A stretch of DNA of 62,871 bases, filler included. It is 6 parts of 6 records of this genome, joined end to end, with 100 filler letters (N's around TTAATTAATTAA, not from the genome) between each part and the next. Parts side by side here need not be neighbours in the genome. Positions count along the whole stretch, not along the records: positions 54,715 to 59,643 come from SRR20825010_2643; 5 more parts are not named here. One strand, given 5' to 3'. The translations under genes and the position numbers were made by a program. The notes beneath the pieces are model-generated. The model ran no database searches. It was not told where the DNA came from and saw nothing but the letters and a program-made list of their open reading frames with translations. Each line of letters starts with the position of its first letter. The first letter of the stretch is position 1. Below are positions 4,664 to 58,661 of this stretch, piece by piece.

Positions 4664-5803
4664 ATGGCACTTGTATTGACCGAGGAGCAGCAGCTTCTCC
4701 GCGACACCGCCACGCAATTCTTTCAAGAGCGCGTGCCCGTCGCCAATCTGCGCAAACTACGCGATACGAATAATCCCGATGGCTTTGACCGCGCTGTCTG
4801 GAAAGAAATGGCCGACCTTGGATTTGCCGGCATCATGACATCAGAGAAATACGGCGGCACGGATTTCGGTCCCGTTGGTCTTGGTCTGGTCCTCGAGCAA
4901 GCCGGTCGCACGCTGGCCGCCAGCCCGCTTGTTTCCACAGTGCTGCTCTGCGGTTCTGCCGTGCAGCTTGCTGGCAGCGCCAACCAGCGTCAGGACATTC
5001 TCTCTGCCATCGCAGCAGGTGAAACCATCATGGCGCTGGCGCTCGAAGAAGGTCCGCACCACAACCCCACGCGCATCGCCACCAAGGCAATTGCGGACGG
5101 AAACTATTTCCGCATTTCCGGCAGGAAGACATTCGTTCTGGATGGTCACGTTGCTGACACACTCATCGTCGCGGCCCGCACATCTGGCAACGAAAATGAC
5201 AAGTCGGGCATCACCCTCTTTCTGGTCGATCCGAAATCCAAAGGCGTCACCATCACGCGCACTTTGATGGTCGATAGCCGCAACGCCGCCAACATTACCT
5301 TCGACAATGTCAGCGTTTCTGCAGACGCTGTTTTAGGTTCCGTAGATGGTGGCAGCGATGTGCTGGATCAGGTTCTGGACATTGCACGCATTGGCCTTGC
5401 CGCTGAAATGCTCGGCGGCGTGCAGGAAGTCTTCGACACAACGGTTGAGTATTTGAAAGAGCGCAAGCAGTTCGGCGTGCCGATCGGCTCCTTTCAGGCA
5501 CTCAAGCACCGCATTGCCGATCTCTTTGCCGAGATTGAGCTTTGCAGGTCCGTCGTACTGGACGCGCTTTCCGCCCTTGAGGCCCGCCGCAATGACGTGC
5601 CGCAGATCGCCAGCCTTGCCAAAGCCCGGCTTTCCGAAACGGCAACCCGCATGACCAATGAAGGCCTGCAGATGCGTGGTGGGATGGGTATGACAGACCA
5701 GTTCGACATTGGCCTGTTCATGAAGCGCGCTCGCGTGGCCGCCGCCTCATTCGGCGACGCCAATTTCCATCGCGACCGCTACGCTACTCTCGAAGGCTTC
5801 TGA
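4664..5803 (+). CDS. Acyl-CoA dehydrogenase, partner-subunit type
   Basis: RKQFGVPIGSFQALKH, GGMGMTD motifs; degenerate N-terminal FAD motif (ALEEG). Confidence 0.92.
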   Translation: MALVLTEEQQLLRDTATQFFQERVPVANLRKLRDTNNPDGFDRAVWKEMADLGFAGIMTSEKYGGTDFGPVGLGLVLEQAGRTLAASPLVSTVLLCGSAVQLAGSANQRQDILSAIAAGETIMALALEEGPHHNPTRIATKAIADGNYFRISGRKTFVLDGHVADTLIVAARTSGNENDKSGITLFLVDPKSKGVTITRTLMVDSRNAANITFDNVSVSADAVLGSVDGGSDVLDQVLDIARIGLAAEMLGGVQEVFDTTVEYLKERKQFGVPIGSFQALKHRIADLFAEIELCRSVVLDALSALEARRNDVPQIASLAKARLSETATRMTNEGLQMRGGMGMTDQFDIGLFMKRARVAAASFGDANFHRDRYATLEGF

Positions 5804-5965
5804 TTACGGTGATTGCCCGCCTGTTTCGCCGCCAAGTCAGCGGAATTGGCGGGCCCCACCACAATCTTGCCCCGATTTGATGTTGCTCTGCTTGACAGGC
5901 ACAACGAGCCGGTATCTCCTTGATATCAGCACATTTCGAACGATCAGGATTTGGGAGACATATCC

Positions 5966-8981: not shown

Positions 8982-9015
8982 TGGCCGGGCCTCTGCGCCC
9001 GGCCATTTGCATTTT
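8982..9015 (+). terminator. Probable intrinsic terminator of cspA
   Basis: TGGCCGGGC-CTCTGC-GCCCGGCCA followed by TTTGCATTTT. Confidence 0.65.
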
Positions 9016-9033
9016 GGCCCTTCTCTGTCCCTA

Positions 9034-10305
9034 ATGACCGCAAACAAAAATCAGGAGACGGGATTGTCCGCAGAAACCGAATTCAAAGCGCCATCGAAAC
9101 ACGCGATGACCTTTATATTTGTGACCATCCTCATCGACTCCATAGGCCTCGGGATCATCCTGCCCGTCCTGCCACAACTCATCGAACAGTTGAGCCAGGG
9201 CGGATTGAGCGAAGCGGCGCGCATAGGTGGTTGGCTCCTCTTCATCTACGCCTTTGCCCAATTCCTGTGTTCACCCATCATTGGAAATCTGTCTGACCAT
9301 TTCGGTCGCCGCCCGGTATTGCTCCTATCGCTCACCGCACTCGGCATCGATTATATTTTGATGGGTTTTGCACCCAGCATCGCATGGCTCTTTATCGGGC
9401 GATTAATCTCCGGCATGGCCGGTGCGAGCTACTCGACCGCAAATGCCTATATTGCCGATGTCACCCCGCCGGAGGCTCGCGCCCAAAATTTCGGCCTCAT
9501 GGGAGCCGCTTTCGGTATCGGCTTTATTATCGGACCAGTTATCGGGGGGCTGCTTGGCACATATGGTCCACGCACTCCATTTTTTGTGGCTGCTGGCCTG
9601 TCACTTGCCAATGCGCTCTATGGTCTGATTGTCATTCCGGAAACTTTGCCTCCGGAAAAACGCCGCGCTTTCTCCTGGGCGCGTGCGAACACGCTGGGTG
9701 CTTTCCGTCAGCTTCGCAAAATTCCTTCCGCCTTCATGCTGGCAATTACCCTTTTCTTTCATCAACTCGCACATTTCGTGCTACCCGCCGTTTGGTCATT
9801 TTACACAATGGAAAAATTTGGCTGGGGTGCGCGCGAGGTCGGCTACTCGCTTGGCTTTGCGGGTCTGTCCATGGCAATCGTGCAAGGCGGACTTATCCGT
9901 TCTGTCATCCCGCGTATTGGCACATCGCGCGCCGCCTATCTGGGCCTCGTCTTCGCAGCTATTGGCTATTTCGGCTATGCCTTCTCAACCACCGGATGGA
10001 TGCTCTACGCCTTCATGGTGCCAGCGGCTCTCGCAGGTCTCGCCTTTCCATCGATCAACGGAATCATCACCACATTGGTGCCTGCCAACGCGCAGGGCGA
10101 GTTGCAAGGTGCCCTTGGCAGCATCGGCGGCCTGACAGCCATTGTCGGCCCTGTTCTGATGACACAGACATTCGCATATTTTGCTGGCGCAAATACACCA
10201 TTTCATTTTCCCGGTGCTGCGTTTTTCGCCGCTGGTATATTTGAACTGATAGCCATTGCCATGCTGGTAATCATCATGCGCCGCAAGACCGCGGTAGCAG
10301 CATGA
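9034..10305 (+). CDS. TCR/Tet family MFS drug:H+ antiporter
   Basis: Motif [15 protein letters not shown]; motif [20 protein letters not shown]; about 12 TM segments. Confidence 0.92.
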
Positions 10306-22445: not shown

Positions 22446-22545
22446 NNNNNNNNNNNNNNNNNNNNNNNNNNNNNNNNNNNNNNNNNNNNTTAATTAATTA
22501 ANNNNNNNNNNNNNNNNNNNNNNNNNNNNNNNNNNNNNNNNNNNN
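22446..22545. other. Artificial contig spacer
   Basis: N44-TTAATTAATTAA-N44. Confidence 0.99.
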
Positions 22546-50915: not shown

Positions 50916-51320
50916 CTACGGTGTGGGATCGAGTTCCACTCGAATGGAGTCCGTGCGGTCGGCTTGGTTGGAATATCGCAAGTCGCTGGTGTAATAATCA
51001 GCGTAGCGTCGAGGGACCGTTTGGCCGTGATCGTGATCGGCTGCGGCTACGTCTTCTGTCATCACAATTTGTACGACGACCATTTCATAATCGCCCGGGG
51101 GAAGGGATTCATTCCCGTCTTGATCTCGCAATGCGAACGTTCCATCGCTCGCAATTCGTCCGGCATACCGAGCACCCGTCTCAAGCGAGCGGAATTCGAT
51201 GCTGCCGGACTGAACTGGATCACCGTCGGTGTACTCGACGATTCCCGTAGCGGGTTGTTGGCTCGAGCACCCTGTTAGCGTCACCACCAACAACAGCATC
51301 GCAAATCGAAAATCGATCAT
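50916..51320 (-). CDS. Small lipoprotein, carboxypeptidase-regulatory-like fold (DUF1559 partner)
   Basis: Lipobox LTGC; GTFAL, PGDY, VPRRY...TSDL; DHDHG motif. Confidence 0.85.
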   Translation of the reverse strand: MIDFRFAMLLLVVTLTGCSSQQPATGIVEYTDGDPVQSGSIEFRSLETGARYAGRIASDGTFALRDQDGNESLPPGDYEMVVVQIVMTEDVAAADHDHGQTVPRRYADYYTSDLRYSNQADRTDSIRVELDPTP

Positions 51321-52342
51321 TGTTCCAATTCCACCACCCGAGCGTCACGGCGGTTGGCAAGTGAGCCCAGTACTTTTGTGTCCGTGAAGGGTGTGAACAT
51401 TCTCACGCTGCCATCGACCAAGGCAAAATGGACTCCGGCGGGGTGCCAGCTTCCAAACGAGAACATGTCAGCCAGGACATCACTGGGGCCGTTGGCCAAT
51501 CGCAGTCCGGGACCCGCCAGTCGACTGGATGCCGGAAGATGATCGCCATCGTAGGCGGGTGAGTCCTCGGGGAATTGAGCAAGGCGATCAAGCGGGACAT
51601 ATTTCTCACCGAACAAAAACGTGCTCGACGTTCCATCGGTGACAGAAGCCATGCGAATGCGATCGGACGGTGCGATGGCCTTGCCCGCTTTGCAGTCCGG
51701 TCGCACGCTGATAATCACGCCGGTTCCATTTCCGCCGAAGTAAAAGTCGGTGGGGGCTCCGGTCGCACCGGGCGTTAAGTCACCATGATTGCCGGCATAG
51801 TCACAAAGGGCTCCTTCAACATTCAACGATACATCCGTGGGACGTGGTGGAAGAGGGCAACCGCACGGGAGTCGGCCACCACCGCCGGTTTCTGTGGAGC
51901 GGAGTTCTCGAGTGCCGGTCGGTTGTGTTCCGGAGCGTCGCGAGGGACAGAGGAAGATGTCGGGAACAACCGTCCGGACATTTTCGGGATGTTGATGCCA
52001 GGGTTTGGAAAAATCCCATTGGCTACCCAGCGAGGCTTGCTCGATATACGGCATCACCCGAGCCAGCCACGTCGGTGTTTCCAAACCGCATTGGTCGGCG
52101 GGATCCGCGTCCGGACGCGATTCATATCGTGCCGGCGGGAAGTAGCCGAGCACGTCATGGTGCATGTGCGTGGCCAGTGCCAATTGCCGAATGCGGTTTT
52201 TGCAATCGGTGCTGCGAGCGGCTTCGCGTGCCGATTGAACGGCAGGCAGCAACATCGCCACCAGAACGCCAATGATCGAGATGACCACCAGCAATTCGAC
52301 CAGCGTGAAGGCACGGGGTTTGATTTTTTTGACTACCAACAT
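51317..52342 (-). CDS. DUF1559 prepilin-type protein
   Basis: AFTLVELLVVISIIGVLVAMLLPAVQSAREAAR, TDGTS.T, HPAGVHFALVDGSV. Confidence 0.96.
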   Translation of the reverse strand: MLVVKKIKPRAFTLVELLVVISIIGVLVAMLLPAVQSAREAARSTDCKNRIRQLALATHMHHDVLGYFPPARYESRPDADPADQCGLETPTWLARVMPYIEQASLGSQWDFSKPWHQHPENVRTVVPDIFLCPSRRSGTQPTGTRELRSTETGGGGRLPCGCPLPPRPTDVSLNVEGALCDYAGNHGDLTPGATGAPTDFYFGGNGTGVIISVRPDCKAGKAIAPSDRIRMASVTDGTSSTFLFGEKYVPLDRLAQFPEDSPAYDGDHLPASSRLAGPGLRLANGPSDVLADMFSFGSWHPAGVHFALVDGSVRMFTPFTDTKVLGSLANRRDARVVELEQ

Positions 52343-54714: not shown

Positions 54715-54840
54715 GTGCTTGTGGAAGCCGATCCTAATGCCGCAGCCTTTTATGCACGGCAAGGCTTTCGCCAATGTGGCGAGGTCCCGTCCGCCTCCAT
54801 CCCTGGCCGCACATTGCCGCTAATGGAAATGCGCTTCTAG
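54715..54840 (+). CDS. GNAT N-acetyltransferase, C-terminal fragment (not in ORF track)
   Basis: Manual translation VLVEADPNAAAFYARQGFRQCGEVPSASIPGRTLPLMEMRF*. Confidence 0.8.
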   Translation: MLVEADPNAAAFYARQGFRQCGEVPSASIPGRTLPLMEMRF

Positions 54841-55670
54841 TTTTCTTCGTCAAACCGCAGCGTATGTGCATGGTAAAGCGGCCCATGACCTTTGCCAAAG
54901 CCCGGCGCTGTGCGGATTGCCTCCTGCACATAGTCGCGCGCAATCTCCACCGCATCACGCAATGGCGCGCCTTGCGCCATCAGGGCGGCAATGGCTGACG
55001 CCAATGTGCAGCCTGTACCATGCGTGTGACGCGTGTCGATGCGCGGACCGGACATAACTTCGATCATTTCATGCGTGGCAAGCACATCGTTGATCGTAGA
55101 CCCGTCAATATGTCCACCCTTGATAAGCACCGCATCGCAACCAAGCCCCAACAAGGCATCGGCGGCGGCTTTCTGGTCATCAAGGTTCTTTATGCTACGC
55201 CCCGTCAGCGCTTCAGCTTCGGGCACGTTGGGTGTGATGAGCGTTGCAATCGGCATAAGCGCGCGCTTGTAGGCATCCACCGCATTGGCCTGCAAAAGCG
55301 CGGCACCACCTTTGGCGACCATAACCGGATCAACAATCAGCGCGGCATCCGGCGCGAGAGCCGAAATATCTTCCGCCACGGCTTCGATGATTTCAACCGA
55401 ATGCAACATACCAGTCTTGATCGCGTCAGTGCCGATATCCTGCAACACGACCTTGATCTGGGCACGAATGATATCCAATGGAATTTCGTGGATGCCATGA
55501 ACACCAAGCGTGTCCTGCACCGTGATCGCTGTGACCGCATTGCTGGCATAGCCGCCAAGGGCTGTGACTGTCTTGATATCAGCTTGCAGGCCCGCACCGC
55601 CACCGGAGTCAGAACCGGCAATAATGAGAACACGGCCACGCGGATCGTCGAGATGGAAGCTTTCAGACAT
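54837..55670 (-). CDS. thiD: Hydroxymethylpyrimidine/phosphomethylpyrimidine kinase
   Basis: IAGSDSGGGAGLQAD, KTGML, DPVM, TPN, HGTGC. Confidence 0.97.
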   Translation of the reverse strand: MSESFHLDDPRGRVLIIAGSDSGGGAGLQADIKTVTALGGYASNAVTAITVQDTLGVHGIHEIPLDIIRAQIKVVLQDIGTDAIKTGMLHSVEIIEAVAEDISALAPDAALIVDPVMVAKGGAALLQANAVDAYKRALMPIATLITPNVPEAEALTGRSIKNLDDQKAAADALLGLGCDAVLIKGGHIDGSTINDVLATHEMIEVMSGPRIDTRHTHGTGCTLASAIAALMAQGAPLRDAVEIARDYVQEAIRTAPGFGKGHGPLYHAHTLRFDEEN

Positions 55671-57016
55671 CAGGCCGCATGACCTTCAATGGCTGTGCAA
55701 ATATCCTTCACCACAGATTTGACGAGCTTTTCATCATCACCCTCGCCCATCACGCGGATGAGAGGCTCCGTGCCTGACTTGCGAATGACGAGGCGACCGG
55801 ATGCGCCAAGACGTGCCTCGCCTTCGCTAATGGCGGCTTTCACGTCTTTCTCATTGAGTGGCTCGCCCTTTTTGAAGCGAACATTCTTCAGAAGCTGGGG
55901 CAGCGGATCGAAAAGATGGCAAAGCTCGGACACGGGCTTATTCTCAAGCTTCAGCGCCGCAAGAATCTGGAGCGCGGCGACAAGCCCGTCGCCTGTGGTG
56001 CCGAAATCCTTAAGCACGATATGACCTGATTGCTCGCCACCCACATTGAAACCATGCGCCCGCATATGCTCGACCACATATCGGTCGCCGACCTTTGTGC
56101 GGATAAGGTCAAGACCCAAACCGCCCAAATAGCGCTCCAGCCCCAGATTGGACATGACCGTGGAGACGATGCCCGGCGCTGAAAGCTTGCCAGCCGCTTT
56201 CCATGACTTGGCGATAAGCGCCATGATCTGATCGCCATCGACAATATGGCCGGTCTCGTCACAAATGATAAGGCGGTCGGCATCACCGTCCAGCGCAATG
56301 CCGATATCGGCGCGACGCTCGCGCACTGTCGCGCAAAGACGCTGCGGTGAGGTGGAACCGCAATCATCGTTGATGTTGAACCCATCTGGCGAGACACCGA
56401 TAGTGACGACTTCTGCACCCAGTTCATAAAGCACGGCAGGCGCGACCTTATAGGCCGCTCCATTGGCGCAATCGATGACAATACGCAGGCCTTCCAGCGT
56501 CAGATCGCGCGGAAAGGAATGCTTCACATGCTCGATATAACGCGCCTGCGCATCATCGACACGCTTTGCGCGGCCAAGATCGCGCGATCCGGCCAGCTCG
56601 TCTGTGAGGCCGTTATCGATATGATGCTCGATCTCAAGCTCAATCTCGTCTGACAATTTGAAACCGTCGGGACCAAAAAGCTTGATACCATTATCCTGAA
56701 ACGAATTATGCGATGCCGAAATCATCACGCCGAGATCGGCACGAAGCGACCGCGTGAGCATGGCAACCGCAGGAGTGGGCAGAGGACCAAACAGAAATAC
56801 ATCCATACCCATGGAGGTGAAACCTGCCGTCAGCGCAGGCTCCAGCATATATCCCGACAGGCGCGTATCCTTGCCGATCACGACACGATGACGATGGTCG
56901 CCACGACGGAACACGCGGCCTGCCGCCATGCCGACGCGCAAAGCCGTCTCCGCCGTCATCGCGCCTTCATTGGCCTTGCCGCGGATACCATCCGTGCCGA
57001 AATACTTGCGCACCAT
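55670..57016 (-). CDS. glmM: Phosphoglucosamine mutase (complete)
   Basis: [36 protein letters not shown]. Confidence 0.98.
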
Positions 57017-57083
57017 GCGGTCTCAATTCCTGTGTTCTGTCTGCATTGACACGCGAATATAGAGAGATTTGGCAAAAGTGCAG

Positions 57084-57899
57084 TTAACGTTTTCTTGCTG
57101 AATCTTTCAATGCAGCCAGTACTTTAAGCCCATCACACAAAGGCGCTGGCTCATGCGTGCGGATATAGTCGGCACCAGCCTGACTTGCCGCCAGTTCTGC
57201 GGCAAGTGTGGCCGCCCCCGCCTCGCCCGGACCACGCCCCACAGCCGCTCGCAAAAACGACTTGCGGGAGACAGACAGCAGCACAGGCAGGCCGAAACGG
57301 GTCTTCAATTCACCAAAACGGGCCAAGGCAGCGAAAGATGTTTCAGGCGCTGAACCGAGAAAGAACCCCATGCCGGGATCGAGCACAATCCGCTCGCGTG
57401 CCACACCGGCCTCTGTAAGCGCCGCAATTCGCCGCTCAAAGAACTCTGCTATATGCGAAATGATATCGCCAGCCGGTGCCTCGCGACGATCCGCCTGACC
57501 GTCCTGAATGGAGTGCATGACAACAAGACGGGCATCGGACGCAGCCAACGCGCCATAAAGCGCGCGATCAGGAAAGCCGCGAATGTCATTGAGATAGGCG
57601 ACACCACGTGACAGGGCATAGGCCTGCGTCTCGCGCTGGTAGCTATCAACGGAAACCGCGATGCCGTCGCCATGCAGCGCATCAAGCACAGGTGCGATCC
57701 GTGCAATCTCGGTGGCCGGACTGACGGGCGCGGCATCGGGATTGGACGATGCGGGCCCCAGATCGATAACATCTGCCCCCTCCGCCACCAGTTTACGAGC
57801 ATGAGCAACCGCAGCATCGGGCGCAAGATAGCGCCCGCCATCGGAAAAACTATCCGACGTAATATTGACGATTCCGAAGATTATAGGTGCGCTGCTCAT
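57084..57899 (-). CDS. folP: Dihydropteroate synthase of the Sul clade (Sul2-like), 271 aa
   Basis: GIVNITSDSFSDGG, LGPASSNPDA, DPGMGFFLG, SVSRKSF, IRTHEP; alternative ATG at 57905. Confidence 0.96.
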   Translation of the reverse strand: MSSAPIIFGIVNITSDSFSDGGRYLAPDAAVAHARKLVAEGADVIDLGPASSNPDAAPVSPATEIARIAPVLDALHGDGIAVSVDSYQRETQAYALSRGVAYLNDIRGFPDRALYGALAASDARLVVMHSIQDGQADRREAPAGDIISHIAEFFERRIAALTEAGVARERIVLDPGMGFFLGSAPETSFAALARFGELKTRFGLPVLLSVSRKSFLRAAVGRGPGEAGAATLAAELAASQAGADYIRTHEPAPLCDGLKVLAALKDSARKR

Positions 57900-57946
57900 A
57901 GCCATTTTCTAGCATGAAAAACGTACGGCCACATATGGCTACAGGC

Positions 57947-58561
57947 TCAAAACCCCTGCCCCATGATCATGTTGACGAGCTGTTCGAGATAAATATCGAA
58001 CTCTTTTCTCGCCACACCCGAAAAATGCATCAGCGCCACGGTGTGCCCGCCACCGATAAAGAGACGCGCGGCCGACATTGTGTCGAGACTGGCGGGGATC
58101 ACCCCTTCGCGCTTTCCGCGCTGTAAAAGCCGATGGGCCACATCAACGAAACCATTATTCAAAGCGGCATAGCGCGGCCAGACATCGGCACGCACACCAG
58201 TGCTCCAGTCGAGCCAAACCTTGATAAGGTCCGGCTGCTCGCTCGACATATTGGTGAAGCGCCCGGCGAGATTTTCCAGACAATCGCGCACAGGCGCATT
58301 CTGGGTCAGAAGGCCTTGCACGTTCTCGCTGAGCTGCAATTCGACTTCATCGAGAACGGCTGTCACCAGATCTTCCCGTGTACGGAAATAGGAATGCACA
58401 GCCGAGACGGAAATGCCAGCACGCTCGGCCACATGGCTATGGGTAGCGCGCGCCAGCCCATTTTCGGCGCAGGCGGAAATGGCACAAGCAACGAGTTGCG
58501 CCCGTCGCTCGACAGGCGACAGGCGGGTGCGTTTGGATCTGGTAGCGACAACAGGAGACAA
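57947..58561 (-). CDS. TetR-family regulator resembling Vibrio SmcR/HapR/LuxR
   Basis: RTRLSP..RR.QL, HSHVAERAGISVSAVHSYFRTREDLV..VL, KVWLDWST.VR.DVWP; GAGGGG RBS before TTG. Confidence 0.9.
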   Translation of the reverse strand: MSPVVATRSKRTRLSPVERRAQLVACAISACAENGLARATHSHVAERAGISVSAVHSYFRTREDLVTAVLDEVELQLSENVQGLLTQNAPVRDCLENLAGRFTNMSSEQPDLIKVWLDWSTGVRADVWPRYAALNNGFVDVAHRLLQRGKREGVIPASLDTMSAARLFIGGGHTVALMHFSGVARKEFDIYLEQLVNMIMGQGF

Positions 58562-58661
58562 AATGGCCCCTCAAACAATGGAATCACACGAACCCGAACT
58601 ATAACGGCTTCAAACAAGTATACTGAGCAGTTGCAGCACAAATCAGGCCAAAATTTCTAGG

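Follow-up and report, generated by a model that had tools for sequence, protein, structure and literature searches.

A Parvibaculaceae-type FolP* locus as a probable chromosomal cousin, and not the donor, of the mobile sulfonamide resistance gene sul2

Chromosomal dihydropteroate synthase (DHPS) genes whose products carry the two-residue insertion of the Sul enzymes have been described, under the name FolP*, in Rhodobiaceae including Parvibaculum (Sanchez-Osuna et al. 2019, PMC6335563). According to that study, FolP* genes have a TetR-family or FtsH gene upstream and glmM downstream, and Sul2 and the truncated glmM linked to it (the glmM stub) branch jointly with Rhodobiaceae. Expressed in E. 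coli, the folP of P. lavamentivorans gave a minimum inhibitory concentration (MIC) of sulfamethoxazole of >512 mg/L (PMC6335563, Table 2); FolP* of Leptospira (L. interrogans) was also assayed, and MICs of 512 mg/L or more were conferred by both. The inserted phenylalanine (Phe179 in Sul2) sterically blocks sulfonamides while p-aminobenzoic acid (pABA) still binds, and a Phe-Gly insertion alone raises the resistance of E. coli DHPS, with other residues of helix alpha-6 and active-site dynamics contributing as well (Venkatesan et al. 2023, PMC10328974). The best published identity of a donor candidate to sul2 is 63.3% in nucleotides, for P. lavamentivorans (PMC6335563, Table 1), and the sul genes are stated to have no identified direct ancestor (PMC10328974). 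Our literature search on the origin of sul2 found only PMC6335563 addressing it, and a search for later work gave only these two papers and their preprints. Here we analyze a folP gene with the Sul motif, followed by glmM and thiD, in a 62.9-kb stretch of DNA made up of six contigs (hereafter, the window).

The gene lies on the minus strand (57084..57905) of a 4,930-bp contig (54715-59644). We consider it very probable that this locus is a resident chromosomal FolP* region of Parvibaculaceae type, that sul2 was captured from another member of the same clade, and that the lineage in the window is a cousin. The product is 273 amino acids (aa) long and matches the DHPS models TIGR01496 (254 bits, cut-off 162.6) and PF00809 (214.8 bits, cut-off 25.5); the GC content of the gene is 58.9%. 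Its second ATG, at 57899, aligns with Met1 of Sul2, and the open reading frame (ORF) from this position encodes the 271-aa DHPS of the original prediction, including the motif DPGMGFFLG (176-184 when numbered on the 273-aa form). The gap-free match to Sul2 at about 80% that had been counted by hand was likewise recovered: a tblastn search of 72,556 plasmid records aligned residues 3-273 to Sul2 in one ungapped piece at 79.7% identity (216 of 271 residues, 55 differences), and to Sul3 at 53.7%, the latter with a single one-residue gap far from the motif. In the PDB, Sul2 (7S2J) was matched without gaps (E 3e-133). The window DHPS, Sul2 and Sul3 share the segment LDPGMGFFLG unchanged, Phe181 (273-aa form) aligns with Phe179 of Sul2, and the Sul2 residues Ser52, Phe179, Leu181, Lys213 and Ser214 are all conserved. 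The pattern DPGMGFF[LVI]G was present in 52 of 52 DHPS rows: those of the window, Sul2 and Sul3, 39 from loci of the family or of metagenomes, and 10 from protein databases. On the Sul2 model NF000295 (cut-off 575 bits), the window DHPS scored 478.2 bits, below the cut-off, compared with 615.1 bits for a true Sul2. The exact protein was absent from a collection of 15 billion proteins, in which the nearest entry was P0002, at 96%, encoded on a 675-kb contig.

The original prediction had placed the gene in the order folP-glmM-thiD, on a contig with no transposase, ISCR or integron. The gene order stands: a 67-nucleotide (nt) spacer (57017..57083) separates folP from an intact glmM (55670..57016, minus strand), which encodes a 448-aa phosphoglucosamine mutase (TIGR01455, 631.4 bits, cut-off 447.55), and the glmM stop overlaps by 1 nt the start of thiD (54837..55670, minus strand; HMP/HMP-P kinase, TIGR00097, 307.9 bits, cut-off 204.95). 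We saw no transposase-like ORF on the 4,930-bp contig; because the contig is so short, however, this absence extends solely to 1.7 kb upstream and 2.4 kb downstream of folP, and the second part of the statement was too broad as written. Stronger support for a chromosomal setting comes from synteny with relatives, in which the locus lies on large contigs. The whole contig is collinear, at 77–83% nucleotide identity, with a 78-kb contig (C22) of the relative G044, where the order is tilS-ftsH-aquaporin-epimerase-fatty acid hydroxylase-P450-folP-glmM-thiD-GntR. The collinearity extends to two further loci, L002 and L003, which show the full order P450-TetR-folP-glmM-thiD found in the window; the contig of L003 is 388 kb long. 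GlmM of the window is 75–92% identical to the GlmM proteins adjoining folP in the family genomes, the thiD product is 85–88% identical to the product of the gene after glmM in L002, L003, L111 and L169, and the P450 is 89–90% identical to the product of the gene at the equivalent position in L003 and L111.

Comparison across the family of the genome G001 points in the same direction. Exactly one DHPS match, 57–80% identical to that of the window, was found in 67 of 73 genomes, and none in the other 6; folP is followed by glmM in 30 family loci, with a TetR homologue (54–64% identity) upstream of folP in 18 of these 30. Over 39 loci, identities of DHPS and of GlmM to the window proteins co-vary (Spearman 0.88, with phylogenetically non-independent rows). 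These comparisons indicate that the locus is a resident housekeeping locus and not a mobile one.

The N-terminus of GlmM had been predicted to match the truncated glmM of sul2 elements, and it does so exactly: residues 1-81 are identical (81/81) to those encoded by the stub linked to sul2 in the IncC plasmid L001. In L001 the 81-codon stub is followed by a transposase gene and floR; unlike in L001, neither ISCR2 nor another resistance gene was found near folP on the contig of the window. At the nucleotide level, the first 243 nt of glmM are 86.0% identical to the stub, and L082 and L087 exceed this value (86.8%); at other family loci, 71–81 of the 81 residues match. For the stub, the Nei-Gojobori estimates between the window and the sul2 element are 0 nonsynonymous (dN) and 0.99 synonymous (dS) substitutions per site, and because dN is 0 at such a dS, the perfect protein match reflects purifying selection. 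On these values, and given the higher nucleotide identity of L082 and L087, we rejected the idea that the 81/81 match points to a recent common origin. The DNA match to sul2 elements begins about 20 nt inside the DHPS frame and runs across the spacer to glmM codon 81. The folP coding sequence is 73.0% identical to sul2, ranking 5 among 31 loci, with dN of 0.152 and a saturated dS of 2.13; the spacer, at 67 nt shorter than the 86-nt spacer of sul2 elements and of G044, is 55.8% identical to that of sul2 in a global alignment. Over the whole sul2-spacer-glmM segment, identity is 75.0% with 17 gap openings. Together with the two dS values (2.1, saturated, and 0.99), this divergence supports the earlier claim that the host is not the donor itself.

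Separately, in L001 (3975-5129) the homology of the sul2 region to chromosomal loci begins 5–11 nt upstream of the sul2 start and ends after glmM codon 81. The captured segment would therefore be about 1.15 kb, with little or no native promoter carried along.

Chromosomal DHPS genes closer to sul2 came from two other sources. One is the G044 gene (L085/L111; L111 9764-10579), whose product is the protein MDO8420608.1 of a Parvibaculum sp. metagenome-assembled genome (MAG) at NCBI; it is 90.4% identical to Sul2 in amino acids and 84.7% in nucleotides without gaps over 1,155 nt, including the 86-nt spacer, with dS values to sul2 of 0.86 and 0.43. The other, at 5089-5904 of the Tara scaffold L169, was recovered by a pattern scan of metagenomes and is 93.4% identical in amino acids and 85.0% in nucleotides; its glmM is intact, and the scaffold is collinear with G044 at about 86%. 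Both proteins fall inside the 90%-identity cluster of Sul2, and on NF000295 they score 572.5 (L169) and 557.6 bits (G044), below the cut-off of 575. With their intact glmM, these two genes are the closest chromosomal relatives of Sul2 found in this analysis, and at such divergence neither is the sul2 donor.

Further searches brought out nothing closer. A metagenome scan for the exact donor junction, in which the end of the sul2-linked stub runs into an intact glmM, returned 0 stretches. A looser junction pattern listed at least 120; among the matches listed, 50 had a Sul2-like DHPS match and only L169 exceeded 71% amino acid identity to Sul2. A search for homologous proteins from the G044 DHPS gave nothing intermediate to Sul2, although clustering at 90% hides such proteins in the Sul2 cluster, of whose 2,367 members 40 were examined. 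In a set of 120 database proteins, the highest identity to Sul2 outside those derived from it is 80.2%; P0007, P0002 and P0011 tie with or exceed the window DHPS, and several Parvibaculaceae MAG proteins stand at 79–80%. No mention of the G044 or L169 DHPS genes was found in our literature search.

Phylogenetic trees, with the root set by Sul3 or by distant family members and leaving out Sul1, which was not found in the loci compared, separate the window from the closest relatives of Sul2. In the Sul3-rooted tree of 51 DHPS rows, Sul2 is joined to L085 and the window to P0002, each with support of 100/100, and a 15-row clade (100/97) encloses the two pairs. When L169 was added, in a tree of 31 rows, Sul2, L169 and L085 formed a clade (100/100), enclosed with the window and P0002 (again 100/100) in a 16-row clade (98/95). 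Forcing the window, P0002 and Sul2 into one clade cost 46 log-likelihood units (approximately unbiased (AU) test, p 0.0014; the group was chosen post hoc from the tree). The phylogeny suggested as a check on the original prediction thus groups the window DHPS with family FolP and Sul2. By its motif, gene order and position in these trees, it belongs to the already published FolP* group and is one of several cousins about 80% identical to Sul2.

The original prediction had also called the host close to the donor lineage. What holds of this is membership in the same 16-row clade as Sul2; beyond that, the sister group of Sul2 is G044 plus L169, the AU test rejects joining the window to Sul2, and several MAGs tie with the window. 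The stronger proposal, that no available relative of the sul2 donor is nearer than the lineage in the window, could draw on its 79.7% amino acid and 73% coding nucleotide identity to sul2, set against the 63.3% given for P. lavamentivorans in PMC6335563, and on the perfect match to the GlmM stub. We regard it as extremely improbable: G044/L085 and L169 are far more similar to sul2 (90.4% and 93.4% in amino acids, 84.7% ungapped and 85.0% in nucleotides), with G044 also keeping the 86-nt spacer; the coding sequence of the window ranks only fifth of 31 loci; P0007, P0002 and P0011 tie with or beat it; and the AU result (p 0.0014) stands against it. Were G044 and L169 chimeras with mobile sul2, their rank would mislead, but a nucleotide identity of 85% and an intact glmM speak against this. 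Special closeness of the window to the donor is thus unsupported, because better candidates are already public.

The length of the contig (4.9 kb), with sequence past its ends unseen, and the mixture of contigs in the window leave room for the idea that folP belongs to an unrecognized, non-chromosomal mobile element carrying a divergent sul2 variant. This is highly unlikely in our judgment, since glmM and thiD are full length, the contig bears no transposase-like ORF, the matching gene order recurs among housekeeping genes (tilS, ftsH) on the 78-kb contig of G044 and the 388-kb contig of L003, and DHPS divergence tracks GlmM divergence. Somewhat less remote, though still improbable, is an enzyme that carries the motif and is nevertheless sensitive to sulfonamides, in a host that would then not be intrinsically insensitive: 55 substitutions separate it from Sul2, its insensitivity is predicted from sequence, and other residues of helix alpha-6 and active-site dynamics contribute as well according to Venkatesan et al. 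(PMC10328974). However, GMGFFLG of helix alpha-6 is identical to Sul2 and Sul3, the ligand-contacting residues checked are those of Sul2, the FolP* of the more distant P. lavamentivorans and even of Leptospira confer MICs of 512 mg/L or more (PMC6335563), and the Phe-Gly insertion alone suffices to raise the resistance of E. coli DHPS (PMC10328974). Several points nonetheless weigh against the reading that we favor, that of a resident FolP* locus and a sul2 cousin. The enzyme departs from Sul2 at 55 of its 271 positions; mobile genes could sit just beyond the ends of a contig of this length; a second, ordinary folP may lie elsewhere in the host; the family name comes from the relatives L002 and L003, labeled 'Parvibaculum sp.' and 'Parvibaculaceae bacterium'; and the trees draw on one gene each, with about 273 columns, and give poor support to many inner forks of the 16-row clade.

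Based on these comparisons, we propose a plausible history of the resident FolP* locus and of sul2. The host would be an uncultured, probably marine, Parvibaculaceae-type alphaproteobacterium, a taxonomy that we infer from its relatives, with the locus arranged as P450 / TetR-folP-glmM-thiD. Its folP would be a housekeeping FolP*-type DHPS gene, probably the only one in the host, whose product natively has, as Sul1-3 do, two inserted residues in helix alpha-6 that include a Phe. This Phe, number 181 in the 273-aa form and equivalent to Phe179 of Sul2, would sterically exclude sulfonamides and admit pABA, so that normal dihydropteroate synthesis and insensitivity to sulfa drugs are to be expected of the enzyme. 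It is a reasonable inference that the enzyme, and with it the host, is intrinsically sulfonamide-insensitive, because the Sul motif is conserved and a more distant family member has been assayed (PMC6335563). Mobile sul2, along with codons 1-81 of glmM, would have been captured from another member of the same clade, to which the lineage in the window would stand as a cousin at about 80% amino acid and 75% nucleotide identity, being neither the donor itself nor the known lineage closest to it. As to the donor, we see about even chances that it was an unsampled, probably marine, Parvibaculum-like species within the L169/G044 subclade, with the window and P0002 as a near outgroup; L169 and G044 are each about 85% identical in nucleotides to sul2 and to one another.

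The window thus adds one environmental lineage whose native DHPS is of Sul type, at about 80% identity to Sul2. This supports the view of a reservoir that is old and inherited vertically. The search for the donor is narrowed not by the window but by G044 and L169 (90–93% in amino acids), which lie outside it and are already public. If the window and P0002 are indeed a near outgroup, they could serve to polarize Sul2 substitutions into those that preceded and those that followed capture, and baits for the true donor could be designed with their help. Native Parvibaculaceae folP genes can score close to the Sul2 cut-off (L169, 572.5 against 575 bits) and are merged with Sul2 by clustering at 90%, so that they may be miscounted as mobile sul2; counts of 'sul2' in the resistomes of marine metagenomes could include them.

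The remaining genes of the folP contig lie at its two ends. A gene for a TetR-family regulator (57947..58561, minus strand; PF00440 TetR_N, 32.9 bits) lies 41 nt upstream of folP and has the same direction, an arrangement also published for Rhodobiaceae (PMC6335563). Beyond it, on the plus strand, is a cytochrome P450 gene truncated by the contig end (58662..59644); six NCBIfam P450 families match it, of which SolI scores highest (329.5 bits, under its cut-off), and a Pfam search with the truncated product gave no match. The gene may be CYP153-like. The TetR and P450 genes are divergent, with a 100-nt gap between them (within 57947-58661), and the regulator may act on the P450 gene, on the folP-glmM-thiD operon, or on both. 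At the opposite edge, a GNAT-like ORF whose 3' end lies at the contig edge (54715..54831, plus strand) matches PF13673 weakly (18.2 bits, below the gathering score).

The six contigs of the window meet at five joins, near 22490, 36768, 45399, 54659 and 59688, each of which consists of a run of N, TTAATTAATTAA and a second run of N. An acyl-CoA synthetase on contig 1 is 89–91% identical to the products of Parvibaculaceae genome genes, and its homologue shares a contig with folP in two Parvibaculaceae genomes (G043:C55 and G001:C16). AspRS of contig 2 and PheA of contig 6, by comparison with Parvibaculaceae genomes, reach only 44% and 33% identity, which indicates that at least these two contigs are from organisms other than that of the folP contig. 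Contig 4 encodes (51317-52342, minus strand) a DUF1559 protein with a prepilin-type N-terminal methylation motif, a type typical of Planctomycetota, which would place contig 4 in yet another organism. Contig 1 also encodes (9007-10305, plus strand) a major facilitator superfamily (MFS) transporter resembling the Tet(A)/(B)/(C) efflux family, at 308.8 bits against a cut-off of 475, which is probably an ordinary chromosomal MFS pump of this Parvibaculaceae-like contig. Because the contigs differ in origin, inferences about the host rest on the 4.9-kb folP contig alone.

Set beside the described systems, the locus is most readily read as a further FolP* of the Rhodobiaceae/Parvibaculum type (PMC6335563), with which it shares the Sul insertion, TetR upstream, glmM downstream, grouping with Sul2 and a similar GC content; it differs from the FolP* of P. 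lavamentivorans in its nucleotide identity to sul2, 73–75% as against 63.3%. From Sul2 itself (PDB 7S2J/7S2K; NF000295), to which it corresponds in its 271-aa length, its ungapped 79.7% identity, the identical DPGMGFFLG helix and the glmM that follows, it is set apart by a score of 478 bits, under the model cut-off of 575, by saturated synonymous sites and by a spacer of 67 rather than 86 nt. Sul2-linked glmM ends after codon 81, whereas that of the window is intact, and in place of carriage on a mobile element the contig shows a 448-aa glmM product and then thiD. With G044 and L169 it has in common the order P450-folP-glmM-thiD and the protein family, their GlmM being 92% identical to that of the window. 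Unlike in the window, a TetR match between P450 and folP was not found in these two, and it is they that form the sister group of Sul2, at 90.4% and 93.4% amino acid and about 85% nucleotide identity, with the 86-nt spacer kept in G044.

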